A DNA stretch of 14,022 nucleotides. Source: Abditibacteriaceae bacterium (GTDB lineage: Bacteria > Armatimonadota > Abditibacteriia > Abditibacteriales > Abditibacteriaceae). This document shows, one piece after another, positions 2,289-14,022 of the stretch. The stretch spans positions 1-14,022 of the forward strand of contig JANPJS010000240.1 of assembly GCA_031425655.1 (NCBI GenBank). Reading direction: 5' to 3'. Under the pieces are notes generated by a model. It had not been told where the DNA came from and made no database searches. It saw only the letters and a list, made by a program, of their open reading frames with translations. A program made the translations under genes and the position numbers. Within the stretch, counting starts at the first letter, position 1; every line of letters begins with the position of its first letter.

Positions 2289-3272
2289 ATGTCGCAGCGG
2301 CACCAATTACAGCGGATATTAGAGATTGATCGCAGCATCCGTTCCGGACAGTTTCCTAACGCCGATTCTCTTTCAGCGGAATTGGAAGTGGGGCGCCGCG
2401 TCATTTTCAACGACCGGCGCTTCATGGTGGATCAGCTCGGCGCGCCGATTGAGTTTGATAAGCAGCGGGGCGGCTGGCGGTATGCCAGCGAAACTTATGC
2501 GCTGCCCTCTACTTTGGTCACCGAAGGCGAGTTGATGGCGTTTTTTATCAGCGTTGAAGTCGCCCAGCGTTATCTGGGCACGGCCTTCGAGACGCCGTTG
2601 CATTCGGCGGTGGGGAAGATTGCTCGCAGCCTTCAGGGGCGCGCTTTAGTGAGCCTGCACACGCTGCATCAGCATTACACGTTTGCGCCGCCGCCGTCGG
2701 CTCCAACTAATGAGGCCGCGCTGCTGGCGTTGCACGAAGCCATCGAAAGCCGGCGCGCCGTAGCGATGTCCTACCACACGGCCAGCCGGCGTGAGAAAAG
2801 CGAACGCATCGTGCATCCCCATCATTTACTGCATCAAAGCGGCGAATGGTATCTCCTCGCTTATGATCGCAAGCGGGCCAAGATACTGACTTTCAATATC
2901 GCGCGCATCGAGTGGTGGCGCGTGCTGGACGAACGATTTACGCGCGAAGCCAACTTCGATCCTATCGAGCAACAGCGCGCGGCCTTCGGCGCCGAATCGC
3001 AGACTGGCGTGCTGCCCGTCGTGATTCTTTTCGCGCCCGAAGAAGCGGTTTACATCCGCGAGCGGCGCTGGCACGAAACGCAGCAAATCGAGGAATTGCC
3101 CGGCGGAGGCTTGATTTTGCGCTTCCAAACCAGCGGTTTAGGCGCCGTCAAACGCTGGGTGCTGGGCTACGGCCCACACGCCGAAGTTTTGGAACCTGTC
3201 ACATTGCGCGAAGAAATCGTGAAAGAGATTGAAGCGATGAAAACGGTTTACGAAGGAGAAAATGAACGATAA
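2289..3272 (+). CDS. WYL-domain transcriptional regulator (N-terminal wHTH, WYL, WCX; PafB/PafC/YafY-like)
   Basis: 327 aa. It has an N-terminal HTH (LSAELEVGRRVIFNDRRFM...LGAPIEFD...GWRY), a WYL core (R.VHPHHL....GEWYLLAYD..R..ILTFNIARI) and a WCX-like tail (WVLGYGPHAEVLEPVTLREEI). A good SD is present. Confidence 0.93.
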   Translation: MSQRHQLQRILEIDRSIRSGQFPNADSLSAELEVGRRVIFNDRRFMVDQLGAPIEFDKQRGGWRYASETYALPSTLVTEGELMAFFISVEVAQRYLGTAFETPLHSAVGKIARSLQGRALVSLHTLHQHYTFAPPPSAPTNEAALLALHEAIESRRAVAMSYHTASRREKSERIVHPHHLLHQSGEWYLLAYDRKRAKILTFNIARIEWWRVLDERFTREANFDPIEQQRAAFGAESQTGVLPVVILFAPEEAVYIRERRWHETQQIEELPGGGLILRFQTSGLGAVKRWVLGYGPHAEVLEPVTLREEIVKEIEAMKTVYEGENER

Positions 3273-6036
3273 ATTGCTTGTGTTGTGGGGCAAAACCTGC
3301 CGCGACCCGAAAGAACCCGAAGCGGATTTGATTTACCATCCGCTGTTGTTTCATTTGCTCGACGTTGGGCACTGCACGCTGGAATTGTGGGACACCTTTT
3401 TGAGTGATGGCTGGAAAAAGCGCATCGCCGAAACTTTGGCGTGCGACGAAACGACCGCGCGCTGGGCTATGGCGTTTTTGGCGGGCGCGCACGATTTGGG
3501 AAAAGCCACGCCCGGCTTTCAATTCCAAAAAACGCCTCTCGACTGGCTCCGCGAACGCTTGCACTCGGCAGGTTTTATGGCTCCTGCTAATCCCGAAAAC
3601 AAGCCGCACAATTTTGTTTCCAGCAAGGAACTGCATCATTTCTGGATGCAAAATCTGTGGCGATGGCAAGCGCAAAACCGGCGTGTCGCTCCGGTTTTGG
3701 CGCATATCACCGGCGCCCATCACGGCACGTTTCCTAACGCCGGCGATTACAGCAAATGGAACGATGATGTTTTAGGAAGCCCTATCTGGCGCGAAGCACG
3801 ATTGGCGCTTTTAGATGCTTTGGCCGCACATCTTTGTCCACCTGATTTCGCGTTTCCGCCGACGCTAAAGTGGGATGATGCCGGAGCAATTCCCGTTTTG
3901 GCGGGTCTGATTTCGGTCGCCGACTGGATTGGCTCATCAAGTCATTTCAGAATCGAAGGGCACCGCGACAAGCTGATAAGCGTGCCCGATTATCTTCTGA
4001 AGTCGCGCAAACGGGCGCGGACAGCGTTGGATGATTTCGGTTTTGCAGCCACGCCGCGCTTTGTCGCGCCGAAGCCTGATTTCGCAGAGTTTTGGGGCTT
4101 TGAGCCTAATCCTCTGCAAGATGCTGTCATCGCGCAAACGCAAAACGCCCAAGCACCGTTTTTGCTGCTTTGTGAAGCGCCGATGGGTTCGGGCAAAACC
4201 GAAAGCGCCTTTTGGGCGGCTGACGCGGCATTCACGGGCGCGCTCAATCAAGGGCTTTACATCGCGCTACCCACGCAAGCGACCTCCAACGCCATGCACG
4301 CGCGCACCCGCAAATTCTTGGAAAAGCGATTGCCGCGGGGCGCCATTCACTTGCAGTTAGTTCATGGAAATGCTGGGCTTTTGGAAACGCCCAATGTGGT
4401 CTTTGAGCCGCTTTCCACGCTTTACGAGCAACTGGAAAACGACCCCGAAAAAGCGCGTGTGATGGCGCTGAGTTGGTTTTCGGGCGCCAAGCGTCCGCTT
4501 CTGGCACCCTTTGGCGTCGGCACCATTGACCAAAGCCTGCTGGGCGCCTTGCAAAGCCGCCACTGGTTCGTGCGCCTTTTTGGTTTGGCCGGAAAAGTCG
4601 TGGTATTCGACGAAGTTCACGCCTACGACACCTACATGAGCCGCTTGCTCATCGTGCTGCTGCACTGGCTGCGCGAATTGGGATGCAGCGTGATTTTGCT
4701 GTCGGCGACACTGCCGTCGGGCAAGCGCCGCGAATTAGTCGAAGCGTGGGGCGCGGCTTTGCCTGATGCAGAAGCCAAATATCCGCGCTTGACCTGGTGC
4801 GACGACAAGCCCAATGCCGTTTCCATCGGCATCGAAGGCGCGGAAATGGCGCCCAAAAACGTTGCTGTTTCAGTTTTGAAGCCGGAAAATCTCGCCGCCG
4901 AATTGCGCCGCAAATTGAAAAACGGCGGTTGCGCGGCCATCATCTGCAACACCGTCAAAGAAGCTCAAGCCTTGTTTCAGATTTTGCAAAGCGAACTCGG
5001 CGATTTCATTAAACCTAAGGGCTTAATACTGTTTCACGCACGAATGCCGTTTAAGTGGCGCCGAAGAATCGAAAGCAAAGTCCGGCGGCTTTTTGGCAAA
5101 CGCAAGGCAATGCGACCGCATCGCGCTATTATTGTGTCAACGCAATTATTAGAGCAGTCGCTTGATCTCGATTTTGATTGGATGGCTTCGTTCATGGCGC
5201 CCAGCGACTTGTTGTTGCAGCGCGTGGGCCGTTTACATCGCCACCCCGAAACGCCGCATCGCTACGATTTAACGCAGCCACAGTTAGCGATTCTTTGCGA
5301 TGCCGAAGGCGACGCTCCGCCCAATTTCGGCGCATCCGAGTGGGTTTACGAGCGGGAAGTTTTGCTGCGTTCGTGGCTTTTGTGGCGCGGCAAAACCGTG
5401 TTGAAATTGCCCGGCGAAATCGAATCGCTGATTGAGAACACCTACGAAAACGCGCCCCATCTGCCCGACGAAATTTGGCGCAAAGCCATCGTAGACGCCC
5501 AAGCCCATGCCGAAAACGAACGGAGCAAGGCCGAAGGGAAGGCCAAAAACGTCGTGGTGAAGCTGCGAACCGAACGTGGCAATCGCCGCGCGCCCAGCGA
5601 ATTAGTGGAAGCGCCGTCGTTGGATTTGCGCGATGATGACGACCCGGCGATTCACGCCGCTCTGCGCGCCTCAACGCGCGATGGCGACGAATCCGTCACA
5701 GTGATTTGCCTTTGCCTTGTGGGAAAGTCGTTTTATCTGCCGTCGCCTGACGGCACGCCCAATCTACAGTCGCCGGTGAGCCTAAAGCAGGAGCTGGCTA
5801 AAAACGAAGCAAAAAAGCTGATGGATTTCGCGGTTTCGCTGTCGCAAAAAGGGCTTTATGGGGAACTGTTGCAAATCGAAGTGCCCGCCGCGTGGAAAAA
5901 ATCGCCGTTCTTGCGCCACGCCCGCCCGCTGTGCTTCCACAACGGCGCCGTTGCCATCGGCAACTTCGTTTTGCGCTTGGACGGCGCGTTAGGAATTGTC
6001 ATCGAAAAGGAGAAAAGCGAAACAGGAGCCGAATAA
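3262..6036 (+). CDS. cas3: CRISPR-associated helicase/nuclease Cas3 (HD + SF2 helicase), type I-E
   Basis: 924 aa. HD motifs HLLDV, HDLGKA, HHG and ADW; Walker A APMGSGKTE; Walker B DEVH; SAT; motif VI QRVGRLHRH. SD GGAG; overlaps the WYL gene by 11 nt. Confidence 0.97.
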   Translation: MNDKLLVLWGKTCRDPKEPEADLIYHPLLFHLLDVGHCTLELWDTFLSDGWKKRIAETLACDETTARWAMAFLAGAHDLGKATPGFQFQKTPLDWLRERLHSAGFMAPANPENKPHNFVSSKELHHFWMQNLWRWQAQNRRVAPVLAHITGAHHGTFPNAGDYSKWNDDVLGSPIWREARLALLDALAAHLCPPDFAFPPTLKWDDAGAIPVLAGLISVADWIGSSSHFRIEGHRDKLISVPDYLLKSRKRARTALDDFGFAATPRFVAPKPDFAEFWGFEPNPLQDAVIAQTQNAQAPFLLLCEAPMGSGKTESAFWAADAAFTGALNQGLYIALPTQATSNAMHARTRKFLEKRLPRGAIHLQLVHGNAGLLETPNVVFEPLSTLYEQLENDPEKARVMALSWFSGAKRPLLAPFGVGTIDQSLLGALQSRHWFVRLFGLAGKVVVFDEVHAYDTYMSRLLIVLLHWLRELGCSVILLSATLPSGKRRELVEAWGAALPDAEAKYPRLTWCDDKPNAVSIGIEGAEMAPKNVAVSVLKPENLAAELRRKLKNGGCAAIICNTVKEAQALFQILQSELGDFIKPKGLILFHARMPFKWRRRIESKVRRLFGKRKAMRPHRAIIVSTQLLEQSLDLDFDWMASFMAPSDLLLQRVGRLHRHPETPHRYDLTQPQLAILCDAEGDAPPNFGASEWVYEREVLLRSWLLWRGKTVLKLPGEIESLIENTYENAPHLPDEIWRKAIVDAQAHAENERSKAEGKAKNVVVKLRTERGNRRAPSELVEAPSLDLRDDDDPAIHAALRASTRDGDESVTVICLCLVGKSFYLPSPDGTPNLQSPVSLKQELAKNEAKKLMDFAVSLSQKGLYGELLQIEVPAAWKKSPFLRHARPLCFHNGAVAIGNFVLRLDGALGIVIEKEKSETGAE

Positions 6037-6050
6037 CTTCGGCTCCTGTT
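6021..6050. terminator. Perfect 13-bp hairpin, probable intrinsic terminator (U-rich tail on the minus strand)
   Basis: AACAGGAGCCGAA-TAAC-TTCGGCTCCTGTT, with the cas3 stop codon in the loop. On the minus strand it is followed by TCGCTTTTCTCCTTTT. Confidence 0.65.
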
Positions 6051-6135
6051 CATCCCTGCGCTTGCTGGGAACTAAATAGCGAACGCGAAACTACTCAGCG
6101 TAATTGCGGTTCATACCCGCGCTTGCGGGTAACAA
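6046..6135 (-). CRISPR. Single-spacer mini-CRISPR with degenerate repeats (CreA/CreR-like regulatory guide)
   Basis: On the minus strand: TTGTTACCCGCAAGCGCGGGTATGAACCG (6135-6107, 24/29 identical to the array repeat), a 32-nt spacer CAATTACGCTGAGTAGTTTCGCGTTCGCTATT (6106-6075), then TAGTTCCCAGCAAGCGCAGGGATGAACAG (6074-6046, 22/29). The 61-nt period is the same as in the main array. Confidence 0.9.
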
Positions 6136-6168
6136 AAAGAGGTTACCTTTTTTGATTTCACAATGCAG

Positions 6169-6197
6169 TTGACAGAAACCGTCAGCTTTTGTAAATT
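6169..6197 (+). promoter_or_regulatory. Sigma70-type promoter upstream of the Cascade operon
   Basis: TTGACA (6169-6174), 17 nt, TAAATT (6192-6197). A second, weaker candidate is TTGCTT (6240-6245), 16 nt, TAATAT (6262-6267). Confidence 0.65.
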
Positions 6198-6210
6198 TTG
6201 AGTCGGAGGT

Positions 6211-6245
6211 GAGACATTACGCGATACAACGCAACGTAATTGCTT
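6211..6245 (-). promoter_or_regulatory. Self-target (protospacer plus AAG PAM) of the 6046-6135 mini-CRISPR
   Basis: The minus strand reads AAG-CAATTACGTTGCGTTGTATCGCGTAATGTCTC. It matches the mini-array spacer at 20 of the 24 PAM-proximal positions, including positions 1-8. Confidence 0.85.
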
Positions 6246-6479
6246 GCAAAAATGCAAAAAATAATATTTGAAGGCGCGTTCTGATAGGATTGTTGGCTCT
6301 GGCGCGCCAACGCCAGAGCCAACTGTGCAATCCCGTCGGACTTCGATAAATGCTGTTTGCTCCAACGTTTATCGAAACGGGTCGCGCGCCGCCCATCCAT
6401 GCTTCGGCAACTGCCGAATTTGACCTTGGCGGGGACGACACAGAGTAGTTTACCGTGTCGTCCCCGCTCCGGGAGGACG

Positions 6480-8087
6480 ATGAATTTTACTTTTAATCTG
6501 CTCACTGAGCCGTGGATTCCCGTTTTGCAGAATGACGGAAAAATCCGCGATGTGGGGCTGCGTGAGCTTTTGCTCGACGCTCACAATTTCCGCGAAATCG
6601 CCCACGATTCGCCGCCGTTCGTAGCGTCGCTGCTGATGGTTGGCGTGGCGTTGCTGCACAGCGCGTGGCCCGGCGAAACGACTATCGAACGCGAGGACGA
6701 ATGGGAGCGCGTGTGGAATCTGGGGCGCTTCGACGCCGACGTTCTGGAAGCGTATTTCCAAAAGTGGGCCGACCGCTTCGATTTGTTTCATCCTCAATTT
6801 CCGTTTTACCAGACGGCGGGCATGACGATGGAAAAGGACAGCGCGCTTTTTCGTCTGGCACTGGATGAGAACAACGCCGGGATGTTCGCCAACGAAGCTA
6901 ATCCCGAATGGCAGGCGCCCTCGCCGCAAATCGCCGCGCAATTGCTGCTTTGCATCCAAAGCTACGCCGTTGGTTTGGGTCTGACCAGCAACGCCAAAAT
7001 CGGCGCCGAAGTTTTGGAAACGCCGCGTTTTACCAACGGCGTGCTGATGAGTGGTCTCACCATTTGGCCGTCGGGCGCCACGCTTTTTCAAACTTTGATG
7101 CTTAATACGGTGCCGCACGAACGCGCCGAAGACGACAAGCCCTGCTGGGAACTGGACGCGCCGCATCTTTTGCGCGACACCGAAAGCAAGGCCGGGCGCC
7201 GCGTGGAGCCGGTGCGTGGCATTTGCGATTTGCTGACGCTGCAAAGCCGCTTAATTCGGCTGTTACCGGTTGAGCGCAACGGACAAGTTGCCGTTCCCAG
7301 CGTGTATTTCACGCAGGGTCGCAGTGTCAGCAGAAGCGGCGGCACCGAGTTTCATCCTTTCAAACTCTATATTCCCAGCAAAGAAACCGGCTTCACACCG
7401 CTGTCTTTGAGCGAAAACAAGGCAATTTGGCGCAACAGCGCGGCGCTTTTATCGCCCGAAACGCGCAAGCACGACGCACGCAATCCTTTATCGTTTGTAG
7501 CGCAGATGGCGCAGGGCGGCGTGCTGGCGCCGGATTTCCGCGCCGGTTTGGACGTTGTCGGCATTGCTACCAAACCGGGCAAAGCGGCCAGTATTTTGTT
7601 GTGGCGCCATGACCGCTTGCCACTGCCTCCGGCGCTTTTGCTCGACCGCAACGTCGAAAGTCGCGTTCACGCAGCCATTGACGAGGCCGACAAACTCGCT
7701 GACGAAATGCGCCTGCGCTTTTCCATGGTGGCGCGCACGCTTTTGGTGCCGGAAAAAATGGCCGGTCACAGTCCCGACCCGGACGACGTAAAGAATCTGG
7801 TTGCTAAGTTCGATCCGCGCCGGGCGTTTTGGCCGCAACTGGAAACTCCGTTTCTCGATTTTCTCAAGCGACTGCCCACCGAACCCGATGCGGCGCGCAG
7901 CGATTGGCGCACGGCTATCGAAATGACGGCCAACGAATGTTTTGGCGCCGCGTGCAACGCGCTGGGCACCGGGCCGGACGCCGTTGTCGCCGTCGCGCAG
8001 GTTTCGCGCTTTTTCAAGCTCGAACACATTCTCGAACGCGCCGAAAAATTCAAATCTTCCCGGCCTAAAACCGCCAAAAAGCGGTAA
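6480..8087 (+). CDS. cas8e: Type I-E Cascade large subunit Cas8e (Cse1/CasA)
   Basis: The start was reassigned to ATG 6480 (SD GGGAGG at 6471-6476). The N-terminus FNLLTEPWIPV and the motifs RFDLFHPQFPFYQ, G.TLFQTLMLN and LTLQSRLIRL are typical of Cse1. 535 aa. Confidence 0.95.
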   Translation: MNFTFNLLTEPWIPVLQNDGKIRDVGLRELLLDAHNFREIAHDSPPFVASLLMVGVALLHSAWPGETTIEREDEWERVWNLGRFDADVLEAYFQKWADRFDLFHPQFPFYQTAGMTMEKDSALFRLALDENNAGMFANEANPEWQAPSPQIAAQLLLCIQSYAVGLGLTSNAKIGAEVLETPRFTNGVLMSGLTIWPSGATLFQTLMLNTVPHERAEDDKPCWELDAPHLLRDTESKAGRRVEPVRGICDLLTLQSRLIRLLPVERNGQVAVPSVYFTQGRSVSRSGGTEFHPFKLYIPSKETGFTPLSLSENKAIWRNSAALLSPETRKHDARNPLSFVAQMAQGGVLAPDFRAGLDVVGIATKPGKAASILLWRHDRLPLPPALLLDRNVESRVHAAIDEADKLADEMRLRFSMVARTLLVPEKMAGHSPDPDDVKNLVAKFDPRRAFWPQLETPFLDFLKRLPTEPDAARSDWRTAIEMTANECFGAACNALGTGPDAVVAVAQVSRFFKLEHILERAEKFKSSRPKTAKKR

Positions 8088-8112
8088 TGGCCTACTTCGT
8101 TAAGGAGAATTT

Positions 8113-8655
8113 ATGACCCACTGGGAAACATCCGAAGAACTGCGCGCTCGCGTGGGGCGGCTGGTCGGACGGCTGGCGAGCCTCGAAAGCAACGACGCCG
8201 GCTCCGACCGCGCGACGATGGCCGCTTTGCGCTCTGGCTTGCGGCACAGCGACGGCGTGGCGTTGGAGATGATGCCGTTTCTCTCCAAATTTTTGCCGCC
8301 GCAGGAATCCAAGCGCGACGCGCGCTGGTTTCAAGTCGCCGCGCTGTTTGCGCTGCATCCGCAAAACACGCGGCGGGAAACCTTCGCGCAAGCGTTTCGC
8401 AAATTAGCCGACGCCGGTTCGGAATCGGTTGAAAAACGCTTTCAACTGCTCTTGTCTTGTCACGGCGACGACTTGTTTCGTCACCTGACGCAGTGCGTGG
8501 GCTTATTGCACGCGCAAAACATCTCGCTCAATTGGTATCAATTGCTGCTCGACTTGTCCGCCGGCGATTGGGACGATCCGCGCCGCACCATCCAAATGCG
8601 CTGGGCGCGTGAATTTTACCGCCAGCGTGCCGAAGAATTTGCCTCGCAAAACTGA
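8113..8655 (+). CDS. cas11: Type I-E Cascade small subunit Cas11 (Cse2/CasB)
   Basis: 180 aa helical protein with A.LR.G, VAALFALHP, SVEKRFQLLL, NWYQLLLDL and RWAREFYR. SD TAAGGAG. It lies between cas8e and cas7. Confidence 0.93.
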   Translation: MTHWETSEELRARVGRLVGRLASLESNDAGSDRATMAALRSGLRHSDGVALEMMPFLSKFLPPQESKRDARWFQVAALFALHPQNTRRETFAQAFRKLADAGSESVEKRFQLLLSCHGDDLFRHLTQCVGLLHAQNISLNWYQLLLDLSAGDWDDPRRTIQMRWAREFYRQRAEEFASQN

Positions 8656-8665
8656 AAGGAATTTT

Positions 8666-9925
8666 ATGAAACTTGAACTGCACCTCATCCAGAGCTTTGG
8701 CCCGTCGTGCCTGAACCGCGACGCGACCAACTCGCCCAAAGACTGCGAATTCGGCGGCGTGCGCCGCGCCCGCGTCTCGTCGCAATGCTTCAAACGCTCC
8801 ATCCGCGAGTTTTTCCGCGACAACAATCTCGTGCCGGTTGGCGAGCGCACCAAGCGTCTGCGCGCTGAAATTGGCACCTTCCTGCCTGAATTGGAGCCGC
8901 AGGAGCTTGTGCCTTTCGCCGTTGACGCCTTCGTGGACACCTATTACGCCAAAAACGATTCCAAAAAGCCCGAACACTCTTCGGTTTTGCTGTTTTTGTC
9001 GCAAGTCGAACTCGAAGAAGCGGCCAAGTGCATTAGTGACAGTTGGGCCGATTTGAAGCCTTTTGCCGACGCGCGGCGCAAGGAAATCGAAAAAATCGCC
9101 GCCAAAGCCTCCAAAAAAGGCGCGACTCCGGCGTTGCCGCTCGAAGGTGAAGAACCGGCGCCCGAAGCCAGCGACGATGGCGCGGCAGGCGATGGAAAAT
9201 ACAAAAATCTGCCCAAAGCCAAAGAAGATAAAACCATCGTGGAGCGGCTTCGCAGCGCCGCGCTGTCATCGGACATCGCGCTATTTGGGCGAATGTTGGC
9301 CGAACACACCGAGCATCGCATCGAAGCCGCCGTGCAAGTCGCGCACGCGATTTCGACGCACGCCGTAACGCCGGAACTGGACTTCTTTTCGGCGGTGGAC
9401 GACCTCAACAAAGATGACGCGGGTGCTGGAATGCTCGGCGTGACCGGCTTTAACGCCGCCGTGTTTTATCGCTATGCGCTGCTCGATTTCGACGCATTGG
9501 AACTGAATCTCAAGGGCGACCGCGCGGTGGCGCTGCAAACGGCGCGGGCGTTTTTGCGGGCTTTCGTGGAAGCGATTCCCAGCGGCAAGCAAAACTCGAT
9601 GGCCGCGCAAAGCCTGCCGTCGCTGGGCGTTTTCGTGGTGCGCGAAAGCGGAGCGCCGTGCAGTCTGGTGAATGCTTTTTGCGAGCCGATTAGCACTAAA
9701 AAGAAAACGCAGGGAGAGCAAGAATCGCGCGGTTTCTTGCGAGATTCGGTGGACGAATTCGCCGGCTACTGGGAACGCTATGCAAAGGTTTACGGCGAGG
9801 ACGGCATCACTGAAAAAGCCTTGTTTTGCATGGAAAAGGCGCCGCAACTGGGCAGTTTGGCGGCGGCTGACAAAGGCTCGGCCAAAGCCGCCATTGACGC
9901 TGCGATGAAAGCTCTGGGCGAGTAA
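8666..9925 (+). CDS. cas7: Type I-E Cascade backbone Cas7 (Cse4/CasC)
   Basis: Start at ATG 8666 (SD AAGGA). Motifs LELHLIQSFGPSCLNRD...PK...FGGVRRARVSSQCFKR, DIALFGRMLA, AAVQVAHAISTH, DFFSAVDDL and PSGKQNS. Confidence 0.97.
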   Translation: MKLELHLIQSFGPSCLNRDATNSPKDCEFGGVRRARVSSQCFKRSIREFFRDNNLVPVGERTKRLRAEIGTFLPELEPQELVPFAVDAFVDTYYAKNDSKKPEHSSVLLFLSQVELEEAAKCISDSWADLKPFADARRKEIEKIAAKASKKGATPALPLEGEEPAPEASDDGAAGDGKYKNLPKAKEDKTIVERLRSAALSSDIALFGRMLAEHTEHRIEAAVQVAHAISTHAVTPELDFFSAVDDLNKDDAGAGMLGVTGFNAAVFYRYALLDFDALELNLKGDRAVALQTARAFLRAFVEAIPSGKQNSMAAQSLPSLGVFVVRESGAPCSLVNAFCEPISTKKKTQGEQESRGFLRDSVDEFAGYWERYAKVYGEDGITEKALFCMEKAPQLGSLAAADKGSAKAAIDAAMKALGE

Positions 9926-9935
9926 AGGAGGCGCC

Positions 9936-10604
9936 ATGCCACATACATTATTGCTGGATTTGGTCGGCCCAATGCAGTCGTGGGGCCATCGCTCGCGCTT
10001 CGACAACCGAGACACCGGCTTGGAACCCACGAGATCAGGCGTGGTGGGCTTGTTGTGCGCGGCGCTGGGCTGGGCGCGCGACGCCGATTTAAGCCGCTTC
10101 GAGTCGCTCCAAATGGGCGTGCGCGTGGAAAAACCGGGGCGCGTGGCGCTGGATTTTCATACCGCGCAGCGTCGCCCCGACGAAAACGCCACGATTTCAA
10201 GCCGCTATTACCTCGCCGATGCGCGTTTTCTGGTTGGTCTGGAAGGCGATTTGGAATGGCTGCAAACTTTGCAAGCGGCGCTCAATAACCCGAAATGGCC
10301 ACTTTTTCTGGGGCGTAAAGCCTTTCCCCCGGCGTTGCCCGTGGCGCGTGGCATCGAAGAGGGAGTAGTAAAAACTGTTTTGCAACGCGCAGCATGGATC
10401 GCCCTGACAAGCGCCGAAAAGCGGCGAGGCGAAAAGTTGGCGCCGCTAAAATTGGTTTTGGAAACGCTCAATCCTGCCGACGGCGAAACCATCATGGACG
10501 CGCCGCGCGACTTCGAGCGGCGGCGCTACGGCGTGCGGTATTTGACGTTCGAGAGCGTTTCTTCGCCTCCCATCGCCTTATGGAACGAAGGAGCAAACTC
10601 ATGA
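9936..10604 (+). CDS. cas5: Type I-E Cas5 (CasD)
   Basis: Motifs LLLDLVGPMQSWG...R.T...PTRSGVVGLLCAALG, DFHT, RYYLADARFLVGLEG and LFLGRKAFPP. SD AGGAGG. Confidence 0.96.
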   Translation: MPHTLLLDLVGPMQSWGHRSRFDNRDTGLEPTRSGVVGLLCAALGWARDADLSRFESLQMGVRVEKPGRVALDFHTAQRRPDENATISSRYYLADARFLVGLEGDLEWLQTLQAALNNPKWPLFLGRKAFPPALPVARGIEEGVVKTVLQRAAWIALTSAEKRRGEKLAPLKLVLETLNPADGETIMDAPRDFERRRYGVRYLTFESVSSPPIALWNEGANS

Positions 10605-11419
10605 TTTATCTTTCGCGCTTGTTTCTCGATCCGTTTGCGCGGCGCGTGCAAAACGAGTTGGCGGCGCCTTACGAAATGCACCGGACGTTGTGTCACGCGT
10701 TTCCCGATTTGTCGAAAGAGCAGTGGGAAGCGGCGCGCGTGTTGTTTCGCGCCGACGAGGAAAAAGGCCGCATCGCCTTGATTGTGCAGTCGAAAATCGC
10801 GCCGAATTGGGCAGATTTCGCGGCCAAAGTTGAGGGACGCTATCTGCTGGCTGCGCCGGATGTGAAAGCGTGGCAGCCGCAGTTCCAAGTCGGGCAAAAG
10901 CTGCGCTTTCGCTTGCAGGCGAATCCGACGTTTTCGCCAAAAAGCGAAGGCAAGCGCGGCCAAAGGCGCGGCCTTTACCGCGAAGCTGAGCGTTTGGACT
11001 GGCTGCGGCATCGTGGCGAACGCAACGGCTTCGAGTTGCCGTTGGTTGAAACCACGCTTCGCAAAATGGGCAGCAGCAAAATCGTTTTTCGTGGCAAAGA
11101 ATTGGACGAAAGCGAACTCACGCTCGATTTGCCGCTGTGCGAAGTCGTGGATTTGAACGGCGGGCGTTTAGTCAGCGAGAAACCGCTGCGCCACAGTGAC
11201 CGCACACGGCGCACTTTGAGCCATCCGATGCCGCTGGATCGGCCAGAAGGTGAAAACCAGCCGCGCCGCGTGAACTTCGGTTCGAGTGAATTTTCCGCTG
11301 CACGCTTCGACGGCGTGCTGCAAGTCACCGAGTCGGAAAAGTTCGTGGCGGCGGTGGAAAACGGCATCGGCAAAGCGCGAGGCTTTGGTTTCGGTCTGCT
11401 CTCGCTGGCTCGCGCCTAA
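10601..11419 (+). CDS. cas6e: Type I-E crRNA processing endonuclease Cas6e (Cse3/CasE)
   Basis: Start at ATG 10601 (ATGA overlap with the cas5 stop; SD GGAG). Motifs MIYLSRL, YEMHRTL, LRFRLQANPT, FDGVLQV and the glycine-rich loop GIGKARGFGFGLLSL. 272 aa. Confidence 0.96.
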   Translation: MIYLSRLFLDPFARRVQNELAAPYEMHRTLCHAFPDLSKEQWEAARVLFRADEEKGRIALIVQSKIAPNWADFAAKVEGRYLLAAPDVKAWQPQFQVGQKLRFRLQANPTFSPKSEGKRGQRRGLYREAERLDWLRHRGERNGFELPLVETTLRKMGSSKIVFRGKELDESELTLDLPLCEVVDLNGGRLVSEKPLRHSDRTRRTLSHPMPLDRPEGENQPRRVNFGSSEFSAARFDGVLQVTESEKFVAAVENGIGKARGFGFGLLSLARA

Positions 11420-11509
11420 AGGTTCCTCGCCTGCGCGGGGATGAACCGGTGCGCGACTCACTCACTTATCTTTACGTCGAGTGTTCCCTGCGAGCGCGGG
11501 GACGAATTA
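11420..11509 (+). CRISPR. Single-spacer mini-CRISPR with degenerate repeats; the spacer derives from a cas1 gene
   Basis: AGGTTCCTCGCCTGCGCGGGGATGAACCG (11420-11448, 23/29), a 32-nt spacer GTGCGCGACTCACTCACTTATCTTTACGTCGA (11449-11480), then GTGTTCCCTGCGAGCGCGGGGACGAATTA (11481-11509, 21/29). Both stems are preserved through G-U pairs, and the period is 61 nt. Confidence 0.92.
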
Positions 11510-11521
11510 TGGAGGTGCATC

Positions 11522-12487
11522 ATGGGACGCATGGACGACCTGCACATCTTGCCCAAAATTAGGGACAGCCTGACATACCTTTACGTCGAACACGCGACGA
11601 TTGACCGTCACGAAAACAGCATCGCGCTGTGGGACAAAGAAGGCTGCACGCCGGCACCGGCTTCGTCGCTGTGTGTGCTAATGCTGGGGCCGGGCACGCG
11701 CATCACGCAGGCCGCTATCACCATGTTGGCCGACAACAATTGCCTGACGGTTTGGTGCGGCGAGGAAAACGTGCGTTTCTACGCGTGGGGCACGGGCGGC
11801 ACACGCAGCGCCGCGCCGCTTTTGCATCAGGCGCGCATGGTCAGCAATGAAACGCTGCGCCTTGAGGTAGTGCGGCGGATGTATCGAATGCGTTTTGAAG
11901 GCGATCTCGATCCGGCGCTCACGGTGGAGCAGTTGCGAGGCATGGAGGGCGCAAGGGTGCGCGAGACTTACAAGAAGTTCAGCAACGACACCGGCGTCGC
12001 GTGGGAAGGAAGGTCTTACGACCGGACGCGTTGGAACAACACCGATTTAGTCAACAAAGCGCTGTCGTGCGCGAACTCCTGCCTTTATGGTTTGTGCCAC
12101 GCCGCGATTTTGGCGACCGGCTACAGTCCGGGGCTGGGCTTCATTCATACCGGAAAGCAGTTGTCGTTCGTCTACGATATTGCCGACCTCTATAAGGCTG
12201 AACTGACGATTCCACTGGCCTTTTCGGTGGCCGCGGATGCTCCGGCGCAGTTGGAACGCACGGTGCGTTTGCGCTGCCGCGATATTTTCCGCGAAAGCCG
12301 TCTTTTGCAGCGCATCATCCCCGACATTCGCCGCGCTTTAAATGCCCCCGCCGACGCAGATGGCTGGGAATCTCCGCTGGACGAAGACCCGGCGCAGCCG
12401 ACGGATTTGTGGACGCCGTCGTGGGAGCAAGCCGGCAATGCAGCGCCTGAATCGCAGCCCGGCGACGAACAATGGGGTAACGGCTGA
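11522..12487 (+). CDS. cas1: Type I-E Cas1 integrase
   Basis: The start was reassigned to ATG 11522 (SD GGAGGT at 11511-11516); ATG 11531 is also possible. Motifs LMLGPGTRIT, WCGE, QLRGMEGARVR, GYSPGLGFIHTG and SFVYDIADLYK. It has an acidic C-terminal tail. Confidence 0.97.
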   Translation: MGRMDDLHILPKIRDSLTYLYVEHATIDRHENSIALWDKEGCTPAPASSLCVLMLGPGTRITQAAITMLADNNCLTVWCGEENVRFYAWGTGGTRSAAPLLHQARMVSNETLRLEVVRRMYRMRFEGDLDPALTVEQLRGMEGARVRETYKKFSNDTGVAWEGRSYDRTRWNNTDLVNKALSCANSCLYGLCHAAILATGYSPGLGFIHTGKQLSFVYDIADLYKAELTIPLAFSVAADAPAQLERTVRLRCRDIFRESRLLQRIIPDIRRALNAPADADGWESPLDEDPAQPTDLWTPSWEQAGNAAPESQPGDEQWGNG

Positions 12488-12508
12488 GACCCGGCAAGGA
12501 GCAAAGCG

Positions 12509-12823
12509 ATGGTAATCCTCATCATGGAGCGCGTGCCGACCGGCCTGCGCGGAGAATTGTCCCGCTGGATGATCGAGCCGAAGGCCAACGTTTTTGTGGG
12601 CAAGATGTCGGCGATGGTGCGCGATAAACTGTGGGACAAGGTGTGCGAAAAATCAAAGGATGGCGCAGCGACCTTGATTTTTCCGGCGCCCAATGAACAG
12701 GGCTTCGCCATGCGAACTTGGGGCAGCAGCCGGCGCGAATTGGTAGATTACGAGGGGCTGACGTTGGTTCGCATCCCAAAGCCTACCGAAAAGGAGGACA
12801 AAGAAGAAGTCAGCACTTTGTAA
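12509..12823 (+). CDS. cas2: Type I-E Cas2
   Basis: MVILIMERVPTGLRGELSRWMIEP...VFVG..SA.VRDKLW, NEQGF and DYEGLTLV are characteristic of Cas2 in I-E systems. SD AAGGAG. Confidence 0.96.
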   Translation: MVILIMERVPTGLRGELSRWMIEPKANVFVGKMSAMVRDKLWDKVCEKSKDGAATLIFPAPNEQGFAMRTWGSSRRELVDYEGLTLVRIPKPTEKEDKEEVSTL

Positions 12824-12884
12824 GTCCACCTGCGTTATCCTTCTAAGCCGGCAATTAAGGGTTGATTTCCACTGGTCGCTAAGT
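12824..12884 (+). promoter_or_regulatory. CRISPR leader (short, 61 nt from the cas2 stop) with a near-consensus IHF-like site
   Basis: It lies between cas2 and the first repeat. TTAAGGGTTGATT (12855-12867) differs by one base from YAANNNNTTGATW and ends 17 nt before the first repeat. Confidence 0.55.
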
Positions 12885-14022
12885 GTGTTCCCCGCAGGTG
12901 CGGGGATGAACCGTCGTTCAATCGCTGCGCGCTCTGTGTCGCATTGTGTTCCCCGCAGGTGCGGGGATGAACCGGTAGTTTCAGCGTTCATAATACCCCG
13001 GAAATTGTGTTCCCCGCAGGTGCGGGGATGAACCGGGTATCGCATGGTGTCTTTCCTTGTTCATGGGGTGTTCCCCGCAGGTGCGGGGATGAACCGACAA
13101 GAATGATGATATTGTCATACCTGCTGGCGTGTTCCCCGCAGGTGCGGGGATGAACCGATAACCGCGACGATTTTTCCGGTGCCATATAAGTGTTCCCCGC
13201 AGGTGCGGGGATGAACCGAAGAGGAAGACGATATTTACGGGGGTATTCAAGTGTTCCCCGCAGGTGCGGGGATGAACCGTATTGACCGCCGCGCGTGATG
13301 AGGCGAGAGCCGTGTTCCCCGCAGGTGCGGGGATGAACCGGCATCGGCGTCTTCACTAATACGCGCCCGCTTGTGTTCCCCGCAGGTGCGGGGATGAACC
13401 GAACCGATGCCTTCGCCCACGATCTCGCCGCTGGTGTTCCCCGCAGGTGCGGGGATGAACCGTTTGAAGATGTTTATATTGAAGGATATAAGACGTGTTC
13501 CCCGCAGGTGCGGGGATGAACCGGCCGGGCGGCGCGGGCCGCATCTCTTCGCTCAGTGTTCCCCGCAGGTGCGGGGATGAACCGAGTTGGGCCGCGCTGG
13601 CGATGGGTTTGGACATGTGTTCCCCGCAGGTGCGGGGATGAACCTGGTGACAAACATCGCAGAAAGCGCCGTGGTCGGTGTTCCCCGCAGGTGCGGGGAT
13701 GAACCGCAGCAGAGGCAGCAAAAGCAATAGCAGCGCAGGTGTTCCCCGCAGGTGCGGGGATGAACCGCCGCCACTGCGCGACTTATGGACGCCTGCCGAG
13801 TGTTCCCCGCAGGTGCGGGGATGAACCGCGGAACCGTGACTCTGAGCGCCGACCCGTTCAGTGTTCCCCGCAGGTGCGGGGATGAACCGCGCTCAAAATA
13901 GACTTGTCGCCCGTTTTCGTCGTGTTCCCCGCAGGTGCGGGGATGAACCGACCTGTGTGGCCTCGCCTGTCGAACTGGCATGGTGTTCCCCGCAGGTGCG
14001 GGGATGAACCGAGCAGTGGATT
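12885..14022 (+). CRISPR. Type I-E CRISPR array: 19 repeats, 18 complete 32-nt spacers, truncated by the window end
   Basis: The 29-nt repeat GTGTTCCCCGCAGGTGCGGGGATGAACCG occurs every 61 nt from 12885 to 13983. It has a 7-bp stem TCCCCGC/GCGGGGA and the 3' handle ATGAACCG typical of I-E. The only variant seen is a terminal T at 13645. Confidence 0.99.

Follow-up and report, generated by a model that had tools for sequence, protein, structure and literature searches.

A decayed single-spacer mini-array with a cas1-derived spacer inside an intact type I-E operon: a candidate guide against related adaptation modules

The anti-cas spacers of Escherichia coli (type I-F) are reportedly the subject of a study by Almendros et al. 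in 2016. They occur in residual arrays and are directed against cognate cas1, cas3 and csy2, according to the parts of Touchon and Rocha (2010, PMC2886076) that we draw on, and the part of a summary used here (in PMC8616872) states that they were later shown to block the uptake of I-F cas genes. As described in those parts, the arrays are very short, their spacers match a cas gene of their own subtype, cas1 included, and their proposed or shown effect is the exclusion of incoming DNA with cognate cas genes; their hosts carry no cognate cas genes, and the known alleles are closely matched. Mini-arrays with decayed repeats are also known as regulators of cas loci, the CreR/CreA elements, which in the excerpts used here (10.1101/2023.03.03.530964, 10.1101/2023.03.10.532045) have one spacer, two decayed repeats and a position between cas genes, the decay sparing what one crRNA-like RNA needs. 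Those described for type I-E in these excerpts lie between cas3 and cas8e and join a cognate PAM to a PAM-proximal partial match at a cas promoter. In the family at large, the partial match is expected to span about 10 nt or more, in or beside the promoter of a cas or toxin gene, which Cascade is expected to repress.

We analyzed a locus that contains two small elements, each with one spacer between two repeats. The window, by which we mean the whole stretch of 14,022 nucleotides, holds a type I-E locus with cas3, cse1, cse2, cas7, cas5, cas6e, cas1e and cas2e; its repeats measure 29 nt and its spacers 32 nt. Each of the eight cas genes passes the cut-off of one or more NCBIfam models, and the family match of cas6e begins at residue 72 of its listed open reading frame. 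The canonical array has 13 more repeats on contig C194. A search of positions 5900-14022 returned no Rfam family at E up to 0.1. The features used below are as follows.

6046..6135, minus strand: mini-array B, between cas3 and cse1 (repeats 6107-6135 and 6046-6074, spacer 6075-6106)
6211..6245, minus strand: target of mini-array B, an AAG PAM (6243-6245) and protospacer, with positions 1-8 matched and 22/32 in all
10394..11419, plus strand: cas6e, open reading frame as listed (TIGR01907 casE_Cse3, E 2.4e-26)
11420..11448, plus strand: repeat-like A1, by comparison with the canonical repeat
11449..11480, plus strand: spacer of mini-array A, 32 nt, a Cas1e gene fragment
11481..11509, plus strand: repeat-like A2, by comparison with the canonical repeat
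11511..11515, plus strand: GGAGG, by its sequence the probable ribosome-binding site of cas1, separated by 6 nt from the ATG (11522)
11522..12487, plus strand: cas1 (Cas1e, 321 aa; TIGR03638 cas1_ECOLI, E 7.3e-111)
11555..11557, plus strand: PAM position of the resident cas1 site, AAA (Lys12), not AAG, read from the sequence
11558..11589, plus strand: resident cas1 site homologous to the mini-array A spacer, by alignment
12509..12823, plus strand: cas2 (TIGR01873, E 5.5e-22)
12885..14022, plus strand: canonical I-E CRISPR array, 19 repeats on the contig with a 61-nt period, running off the contig end

Mini-array A (11420-11509) lies within the cas locus and consists of two degenerate repeats that enclose a single 32-nt spacer. 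It immediately adjoins the TAA stop codon of cas6e (11417-11419) and occupies the whole gap from there to the ribosome-binding site of cas1. An artefact of the metagenomic assembly at this place is ruled out, because a second contig, assembled independently from the probable source run, reproduces positions 10900-12300 with 0 differences at a depth of 13; this contig is from the same sample and is not independent biological support. The source sample also yielded a contig of 176 nt with 81% likeness to cas6e (depth 3.2), which shows that a related I-E locus co-occurs there. A search of sequencing runs returned no RNA run, its hits being the probable source DNA run and two others from that study in which almost none of the words occur.

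Repeat decay in mini-array A is confined to the parts that a single crRNA can do without. A1 is identical to the canonical repeat at 23 of 29 positions, with changes at 1, 2, 8, 12, 13 and 15, and A2 at 21 of 29, with changes at 9, 12, 13, 15, 23, 27, 28 and 29. In A1, one G.U pair preserves the hairpin, and the 8-nt 5' handle is complete (8/8), while A2 has kept its 5' part and hairpin and has decayed in the segment past the Cas6e cleavage point (4/8). The stem changes in both repeats are C-to-T, each keeping a G.U pair. When positions are divided by need, the changes in A1 fall on 5 of the 9 free positions versus 1 of the 20 needed for the crRNA (Fisher p 0.005), and those in A2 on 7 of 12 versus 1 of 17 (Fisher p 0.003). 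Any array that is dying would show this pattern at its trailer end as well.

These features have to be weighed against the possibility that mini-array A acts in cis only, or is a relic, with a functionless spacer whose likeness to cas1 merely marks its origin. In the cis version, the two Cas6e hairpins would set the Cascade and cas1-cas2 messages apart within a polycistronic cas mRNA; in the relic version, the element would be the last trailer unit of a former array between cas6e and cas1. Positions 11150-11650 contain no promoter-like or terminator-like site, so that co-transcription with the Cascade genes is likely, and the preserved hairpins of both repeats are in keeping with either version, as are the single known carrier and the target searches reported below. 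Terminal repeats of ordinary CRISPR arrays typically decay at their 3' ends, which favors a relic. However, the contrast between the intact handle of A1 and its decayed equivalent in A2 concerns a segment that Cascade loading needs and Cas6e cutting does not, the array fits exactly between the cas6e stop codon and the cas1 ribosome-binding site, and a neutral spacer would be expected to lose a codon-perfect likeness to cas1 during the 6-8 changes that each repeat has accumulated. We consider a purely cis-acting element or a relic improbable.

The spacer itself is a captured fragment of a Cas1e gene, encoding V-R-D-S-L-T-Y-L-Y-V-E (codons 13-23). It is identical to the resident cas1 site at 22 of 32 positions, and all 10 mismatches lie within positions 1-21 (1, 3, 4, 6, 10, 11, 12, 15, 18 and 21) with none at 22-32, exactly as the original prediction had described; its description of the PAM position as AAA (bases 11555-11557, Lys12) is equally accurate. 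The predicted conservation of the peptide is borne out (V-R-D-S-L-T-Y-L-Y-V in the spacer, I-R-D-S-L-T-Y-L-Y-V in the resident gene), and so are the codon differences CGC/AGG, TCA/AGC and GTG/ATT and the preference of these cas genes for CGC, which accounts for 60% of their Arg codons compared with 2% for AGG (in cas1, at codons 14, 145 and 164). The raw identity of 22/32 is not above chance, since two unrelated sites in the 6-Mb genome equal it, although the next best match inside the window is 18/32. We take the homology to be real because the codon register and peptide are kept, the site lies 77 nt downstream of the spacer, and the match rises to 27/32 at this very site in other Cas1e genes. 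The reading frame of the spacer differs from that of the resident cas1.

We next consider CreR-type autoregulation, where an RNA derived from mini-array A would guide Cascade to the resident cas1 and repress cas1-cas2 without cleavage. Besides the described regulators, the locus already contains one of its own: mini-array B has the sequence features of a CreR-like regulator and serves as an internal control. Its target lies just downstream of a promoter-like site (6169-6197). Mini-array B is conserved, with a different spacer, in the nearest relative by Cas1, G002, and in both genomes (2/2, the genome studied here, G000, and G002) an AAG PAM adjoins a target that is matched at its PAM-proximal end, with spacer and target co-varying. 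The partial match of mini-array A, for its part, sits at the start of the adaptation genes. However, its complementarity lies at the PAM-distal end (positions 22-32), the PAM position reads AAA and there are mismatches at 1, 3, 4 and 6, the first three being seed mismatches, whereas mini-array B in both genomes, and the regulators in the excerpts cited above, have a cognate PAM and a PAM-proximal match. Genome-wide, the spacer has 21 sites with a functional PAM and at least 12/16 matches, which is the chance level, and none is on the cas contig. The original prediction had judged CreR-style repression of the resident cas1 unlikely and had excluded antisense pairing; the first view agrees with the missing AAG and the seed mismatches, and the second holds because spacer and cas1 are both on the plus strand, which gives the guide the sense of the mRNA. 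From established type I-E behavior, neither CreR-style binding nor interference would be expected at the resident cas1, and we regard such autoregulation as very improbable indeed.

Nor does the rest of the genome offer a target, as we found no PAM-flanked site for the mini-array A spacer beyond chance. One site, on contig C146 (ATG PAM, 20/32, peptide-like), is at chance level and lies within a large unrelated gene; a second, on C326 (AAG, 9-nt seed match), is likewise at chance level. By eye, the C146 gene is macroglobulin-like. The viral contigs contained 0 matches to the spacer, and the plasmids contained one 23-nt match at E = 4, which is not meaningful.

The array is absent from relatives. 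A combined pattern of repeat handle and Cas1 motif occurs in 1 of 401 genomes of the phylum, G000 alone, and mini-array A is found in 0 of 84 other Cas1e loci. A cruder search for a repeat-handle motif up to 450 nt upstream of cas1 identified 2 of 93 loci, G000 and a weak match in L090, while the in-frame N-terminal extension (residues 1-48, open reading frame 11441-12487), used as a protein query, returned only the window's own Cas1. An array relic in the cas6e-cas1 gaps of G005, G013 and G014 was rejected, as local alignment with the G000 junction was no better than with shuffles (the observed scores were reached by 27, 67 and 54 of 500 shuffles, respectively). In G002, where the cas6e-cas1 gap is 17 nt long and holds no array, only an 8-mer aligns with the repeat, at a score reached by 59 of 2000 shuffles, and the TGTTC-gap-handle pattern has two occurrences outside arrays in 11,969,654 positions, a suggestive but post hoc observation.

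The spacer's closest matches are in cas1 genes other than the resident one. G002 belongs to the same genus, does not carry the mini-array and has the Cas1 nearest to that of G000 (82% amino acid identity, sister in the tree); its cas1 matches the spacer at 27 of 32 positions, compared with 22 of 32 for the resident gene. Among non-carrier Cas1e loci, 13 of 84 match the spacer better than the resident does. A pattern scan of metagenomes gave 8 hits, all of them cas1 genes and none a spacer (0/8), with a best match of 27/32; five of the eight combine an AAG PAM with a 27/32 match, and these have a seed mismatch at position 3. No collection searched contained a perfectly matching cas1 allele, the best again being 27/32. 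Placing the spacer by parsimony costs 3 additional steps on the G002 branch, 4 on the stem of the G000-G002 pair and 5 on the resident branch, which, from 32 nt, weakly favors a position beside G002 over one beside the resident. The spacer's Ser codon, TCA, occurs at that position in 0 of 84 loci.

The original prediction was that the resident cas1 had been recoded under selection to escape its own guide. In one form of this proposal, the lineage's own ancestral cas1 would have been sampled at an AAG, and the PAM and PAM-proximal codons would then have been selected to change as far as the protein permitted, with the end of interference and self-priming as the selective gain. The confinement of the mismatches to positions 1-21, four of them at 1, 3, 4 and 6, is in line with it, and the local peak in synonymous divergence that had been anticipated is present in part. 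In the 21-nt window at the site, G000 and G002 differ at 11 nt (mean 5.15; reached in 13 of 314 windows), and the synonymous-only differences number 7, the maximum for cas1 (2 of 314 windows). Arg14 uses the rare AGG where all four close orthologs (G002, G005, G013 and G014) have CGC, and Ser16 (AGC in G000, TCG in G002) is the sole switch of Ser codon family among 15 conserved Ser positions in cas1. In a three-way comparison counted by hand, the resident is the odd one out at 7 positions, G002 at 2 and the spacer at 1, despite gene-wide derived changes of 97 in the resident versus 111 in G002. Against the proposal, a single change in PAM or seed would suffice for escape. In its favor, Fineran et al. 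reportedly found in 2014 that priming tolerates many mismatches, and selection could in that way be prolonged beyond the first escape mutation.

The remaining comparisons point to ordinary allelic variation and in part give the outcomes that the original prediction had named as refuting it. G002 does not carry the array, yet its cas1 likewise has AAA at the PAM position and is identical to the spacer at positions 22-32; the mismatch polarity is therefore a property of the clade's cas1 and not of the guide-target pair. The resident codons, expected to be specific to the carrier, are present in non-carriers: AAA in 31 of 84 (AAG in 37), AGC in 30 of 84, where it is the commonest codon at the Ser16 position, and AGG in 4 of 84. 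AAA is also the preferred Lys codon here (59-67%), and the site of the non-carrier L091 is identical to the resident site at 27 of 32 positions. Codon-level divergence is ordinary, with 5 of 10 same-residue codons differing between spacer and resident against 118 of 249 (47%) gene-wide between G000 and G002. Polarizing the local differences with outgroups yields 5 resident-derived, 5 G002-derived and 1 ambiguous, and 35 of 314 windows contain at least as many resident-derived changes as the site. The CGC-to-AGG change recurs at codons 145 and 164, outside any guide match, the final three full codons do not differ between spacer and resident, and position 15 of the spacer has a state found in neither the resident nor the G002 allele. 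All 30 canonical spacers match only themselves (0/30 match elsewhere in their own genome), and so there is no trace of self-priming.

The difference between resident and spacer thus appears to be about that between natural alleles, and deliberate recoding is not demonstrated; the local peak, the rare AGG and the Ser family switch, in one carrier, keep selected recoding possible. That the lineage sampled and then recoded its own cas1 we consider unlikely. A variant in which the locus has a built-in guide against the most conserved cas1 stretch of its sister lineages, its own cas1 having been synonymously recoded (Lys12 AAA, Ile13, Arg14 AGG, Ser16 AGC), strikes us as decidedly doubtful. If true, it would describe an allelic-exclusion or incompatibility device by which the locus destroys related adaptation modules that come in, or primes against them, and is itself immune, and continued selection against self-priming would explain why recoding went well past one escape change.

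Our preferred reading, to which we give roughly even credence, is that mini-array A encodes an anti-cas1 guide of non-self origin, present in one known carrier, and that the resident cas1 is simply another natural allele. Mini-array A is a leaderless unit that would share a transcript with the Cascade genes, from which Cas6e would release one crRNA that Cascade can load. Its spacer would have been acquired within the genus-level clade, from a Cas1e gene, at the conserved N-terminal motif beside an AAG, the source being an allele other than the present resident cas1. The resident gene would be spared as a different natural allele, with AAA instead of AAG and with positions 1, 3 and 4 of the seed mismatched; the mismatch pattern would be what two such alleles show anyway, with adaptive recoding unneeded. 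The likeliest role, if there is any, would be an anti-cas one, in which the guide directs attack or priming against incoming DNA with a related I-E adaptation module and leaves the resident locus untouched.

A functional guide of this kind would mean that a CRISPR-Cas locus could police which related loci enter and yet tolerate itself, which would bear on the rare co-residence of closely related systems and on the exchange of cas modules. If it is only a relic, mini-array A records, as a dated fossil, the traffic of cas genes between strains. The finding has a clean internal control in mini-array B, the CreR-like element of this operon whose spacer and target co-vary.

We finally compare mini-array A with the systems nearest to it. 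Like the E. coli anti-cas arrays, it is very short, and its spacer is homologous to a cognate-subtype cas gene (Cas1e codons 13-23, best 27/32). Those arrays are orphans in genomes without cognate cas genes; mini-array A, in contrast, lies inside an intact cognate I-E operon, with decayed repeats, a mismatched resident allele and no known perfect target allele. It shares with CreR/CreA elements the single spacer, the two decayed repeats, the intergenic position among cas genes and a decay that spares one crRNA-like RNA, but its place is between cas6e and cas1, and it lacks a target of the kind described for type I-E, while mini-array B fits that family. Self-targeting spacers whose targets escape by mutation resemble it in their homology to a gene of their own genome with mutated PAM and seed; here, the ten mismatches go far beyond need, and the spacer is nearest to a relative's allele and not to the resident's. 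Type I-F3 CRISPR-associated transposons keep atypical, privatized guides outside the main array and direct them to one fixed target, a chromosomal site or a gene. Mini-array A is likewise a dedicated guide with atypical repeats, separate from the main array, but it has no transposon genes beside it and its target is a family of cas genes instead of an attachment site. In the literature searched, we found no precedent for a cas1-derived guide within its cognate operon. Anti-cas spacers in orphan arrays and regulatory mini-arrays at cas promoters are already known; mini-array A combines both, as a cas1-derived guide in a mini-array that is predicted to be processable and that stands within the intact cognate operon.

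The type I-E locus is complete on the window, which is the whole 14,022-base contig C240 of a 6-Mb metagenome-assembled genome (G000), and includes one mini-array (A) between cas6e and cas1 and another (B) between cas3 and cse1:

3262-6036, cas3
6046-6135, minus strand, mini-array B, between cas3 and cse1
6357-8087, cse1
8113-8655, cse2
within 8609-9925, cas7
9936-10604, cas5
ending at 11419, cas6e (stop codon 11417-11419)
11420-11448, repeat-like unit A1
11449-11480, spacer of mini-array A, 32 nt
11481-11509, repeat-like unit A2
11511-11515, GGAGG, likely ribosome-binding site of cas1
11522-12487, cas1
12509-12823, cas2
12885 to the contig end, canonical CRISPR array

Contig C194 of the same genome holds 13 further canonical repeats. 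When the probable source run is put together with a different assembler, it yields a contig that covers 10900-12300 with 0 differences (depth 13). The canonical repeat at 13617-13645 ends in T, not G, which fits the PAM of an incoming spacer supplying the last repeat base. Upstream of the cas locus, a 96-nt inverted repeat (1595-1790; 80% complementary, 4 nt between arms) is nested inside a further 28-nt pair (1571-1598 and 1784-1811). A 327-aa ORF (2289-3272), directly upstream of cas3 and overlapping its start, has a weak, sub-threshold match to the CRISPR-associated family TIGR03985 (E 3.4e-4) and could have an accessory or regulatory role in the locus.

The mini-array A spacer is identical to cas1 11558-11589 at 22 of 32 positions (mismatches 1, 3, 4, 6, 10, 11, 12, 15, 18 and 21), the PAM position (11555-11557) is AAA, and the encoded peptides are V-R-D-S-L-T-Y-L-Y-V in the spacer and I-R-D-S-L-T-Y-L-Y-V in the resident gene. 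The original prediction had all of its facts right, codon-usage remarks included, when coordinates, mismatches and codon counts were rechecked. By itself the raw identity carries no significance in a genome of 6 Mb, where two unrelated sites also reach 22/32; the match is real because codon register and peptide are kept, and because the same site in other Cas1e genes matches better.

At this site lies the conserved N-terminal motif of Cas1e, L-P-K-x-R-D-S-L-S/T-Y-L-Y-V-E-H, present in all 84 other Cas1e loci compared (the non-carriers). Their sites agree with the spacer at 20 of 32 positions in the median case and at 27 at most; 13 of the 84 are nearer to the spacer than the resident site is. 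The closest belongs to G002, a genome of the same genus whose Cas1 is the nearest relative of the resident protein (82% at the amino acid level, sister in the tree): it matches at 27/32, with mismatches 9, 12, 15, 16 and 18 and AAA at the PAM position. Scanned with a sequence pattern, metagenome contigs yielded eight matches, all cas1 genes with AAG directly before the site, identical to the spacer at 27/32 in five (mismatches 3, 10, 11, 12 and 21), 26/32 in one and 25/32 in two. Given these 27/32 matches at the Cas1e motif of G002 and of metagenomic cas1 genes, the spacer is a captured Cas1e gene fragment from this clade; no perfect source allele was found among the 84 loci or in the scan.

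The original prediction held that the resident cas1 had been recoded at the PAM and seed to escape its own guide. We consider selected recoding after self-acquisition unlikely. The check proposed with it looks for a local peak of synonymous divergence in carriers only, and between G000 and G002 a local peak does exist: the 7-codon site window has 11 nucleotide differences (mean 5.15, sd 2.72; 13 of 314 windows reach 11), and its seven differences in same-residue codons are the gene maximum (2 of 314 windows). The peak stands for a single carrier. Compared with the ortholog in G014, divergence at the site is nothing out of the ordinary (equalled or exceeded in 211 of 309 windows), nor is it against L105 (288 of 309 equal or above) or L111 (301 of 310), two comparisons biased towards likeness because both loci were found by a pattern fixing part of this site. 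Same-residue codons differ in 118 of 249 cases (47%) between G000 and G002 gene-wide and in 5 of 10 between spacer and resident, an unremarkable number at codon level. The unusual feature is that two of these codons switch family by more than one base. Between G000 and G002, Ser16 (AGC/TCG) is the sole Ser family switch of 15, and Arg14 (AGG/CGC) is one of three among 25 Arg codons, the others lying at codons 145 and 164, where there is no guide match.

The direction of change is divided. Polarised by the majority of six outgroups, which is crude at fast sites, the 11 differences are 5 resident-derived, 5 G002-derived and 1 ambiguous, and at least five resident-derived changes occur in 35 of 314 windows. 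In favor of recoding, a three-way comparison by hand gives 7 resident-specific and 2 G002-specific positions (1 spacer-specific, 2 where all three differ); gene-wide, the resident is the less derived (97 changes versus 111). A source allele that split off on the G002 side would produce such an excess, and so would recoding. Attached to the Cas1 tree by parsimony, the spacer costs three extra steps beside G002, four on the branch leading to the G000-G002 pair and five at the resident or several other places, a placement that, over 32 nt, speaks weakly against recoding and gives no preference for the resident lineage.

The mismatch polarity had been read as a sign of selected self-immunity. All five differing codons fall within the first six of nine full same-residue codons (6/126 by hand calculation, p ~0.05, uncorrected for post hoc choice). 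However, the array-less G002 has the same polarity: its last three codons are those of spacer and resident, and its five spacer mismatches also lie within positions 1-21. Since G002 has the identity at positions 22-32 and just 2 of the 84 non-carriers share it with the spacer, that stretch marks the clade of origin and not a guide-target relation. Lys is mostly encoded by AAA (59% in the cas genes, 67% across the genome), which occupies the PAM position in G002, in G014 and in 31 of the 84 non-carriers (AAG in 37). Other resident codons also occur in orthologs lacking the mini-array (AGC 30/84, AGG 4/84), and the non-carrier L091 matches the resident site at 27/32.

A1, spacer and A2 exactly fill the space from the cas6e stop to the cas1 GGAGG. 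Relative to the canonical repeat, A1 is changed at positions 1, 2, 8, 12, 13 and 15, and A2 at 9, 12, 13, 15, 23, 27, 28 and 29. In both, the sole stem change is C-to-T, which retains a G.U pair and the canonical hairpin fold. The 8-nt crRNA 5′ handle is intact in A1 (8/8) and decayed in A2 (4/8), where it would serve only a next spacer. With classes set after the data were seen, changes affect 5/9 free versus 1/20 needed positions in A1 (Fisher p 0.005) and 7/12 versus 1/17 in A2 (p 0.003). The same repeat decay is described for regulatory mini-arrays in two preprints (10.1101/2023.03.03.530964, 10.1101/2023.03.10.532045). Arrays that are dying decay in this way at their trailer end too, which would fit a plain relic; we hold the reading of mini-array A as a cis-acting processing site or a plain relic to be unlikely. 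Neither a promoter-like nor a terminator-like site lies within 11150-11650, so mini-array A is most simply assumed to be transcribed together with the Cascade genes. Starting at an ATG within the A1 handle, an uninterrupted reading frame continues in frame into cas1 (11441-12487), which would extend the protein by 27 residues to 348 aa; the ATG lacks a preceding ribosome-binding site, and the protein collection contains no such extended protein.

Mini-array A has one known carrier, G000, as searches of ortholog loci and phylum genomes yielded no other apart from a weak match: a repeat-handle motif precedes cas1 in 2 of 93 loci (G000 and, weakly, L090), and the repeat end joined to the Cas1 motif occurs in 1 of 401 phylum genomes, G000 itself. 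In none of the 84 other loci does the cas1 site recur (best second matches 17-21/32 versus 22 for the resident). G002 has no array, only 17 nt separating cas6e stop and cas1 start, and the longer gap of G014 has no repeats. Gaps of at least 80 nt are common (30 of 90 loci; median 33), and no repeat-like hairpin was seen by eye in the others inspected. Several distant I-E loci (among L051, L071, L075 and L087) share an unrelated, conserved CCCGGGTTTGTACCTTAACAAC-like motif in long gaps, and others have TTGACA-type motifs, with tandem short repeats added in L071; these motifs suggest that cas1-cas2 has its own promoter or regulatory site in this Cas1e clade. At the G002 junction (L003 1476-1510), cas1 opens with an unaltered copy of the 8-nt repeat handle followed by G, with TGTTC 12 nt upstream. 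This resembles a decayed solo repeat, which, if real, stood there before the G000-G002 split; only the 8-mer aligns to the repeat, at a score reached by 59 of 2000 shuffles, and the TGTTC-gap-handle pattern occurs only twice outside arrays in the G000 genome.

Mini-array B provides an internal control. Its spacer has an AAG-flanked target at 6211-6242 (positions 1-8 matched, 22/32 overall), just downstream of a promoter-like element (6169-6197). In G002 (L019), a mini-array B in the same place carries a different spacer, with an AAG-flanked site downstream matched at 13 of the first 16 positions. Judged by sequence, mini-array B is a CreR-like autoregulator whose spacer and target co-vary between the two genomes, matched in each, in agreement with the I-E CreR-type arrangement described in the preprints (10.1101/2023.03.03.530964, 10.1101/2023.03.10.532045). 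It shows AAG to be the PAM in use in this clade and provides a model of a regulatory guide aimed at its own locus. In the G000 copy, the PAM-proximal mismatches (9, 12, 15 and 18) recur at every third position. The target shares its reading frame with a minus-strand ORF (6111-6365), and in that frame three of these four changes would leave the residue unchanged.

Mini-array A, unlike B, lacks an AAG-flanked, seed-matched cas target: across the genome, sites with a functional PAM and at least 12/16 matches number 21, none of them on the cas contig, which is chance level, as are the 15 of mini-array B, its true target among them. CreR-type repression of cas1 by mini-array A is very improbable, as the original prediction had also judged from type I-E behavior. 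Type I-E interference depends on the seed and on directional R-loop formation. The resident site would not be engaged, having no AAG, mismatches at pairing seed positions 1, 3 and 4, and seven effective mismatches when every sixth position is discounted.

Our best reading, to which we give roughly even chances, is that mini-array A yields a Cascade-loaded guide that spares the resident cas1 and engages the Cas1e genes of related lineages. The cas operon transcript would carry A1-spacer-A2, and Cas6e would cleave both hairpins to give a 61-nt product for Cascade loading. Related Cas1e genes would be engaged in proportion to match: G002-type sites would present three effective mismatches, all outside the seed, but AAA, and metagenomic AAG-type sites one seed mismatch. 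A 176-nt contig of low depth (3.2) from the probable source run is 81% like the cas6e region 10906-11013, and the same sample therefore holds a second, related I-E locus at low abundance.

Regulatory mini-arrays (10.1101/2023.03.03.530964, 10.1101/2023.03.10.532045) and anti-cas spacers (PMC2886076, PMC8616872) are both already published. We found no published description of a cas1-derived spacer in a cas6e-cas1 mini-array inside an intact cognate locus, although the preprints' supplementary tables may list such cases; this combination, known from the DNA of one metagenomic genome, would be what is new here. For a guide that engages related cas genes, the nearest precedent comes from anti-cas spacer arrays in E. 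coli (PMC2886076, PMC8616872).
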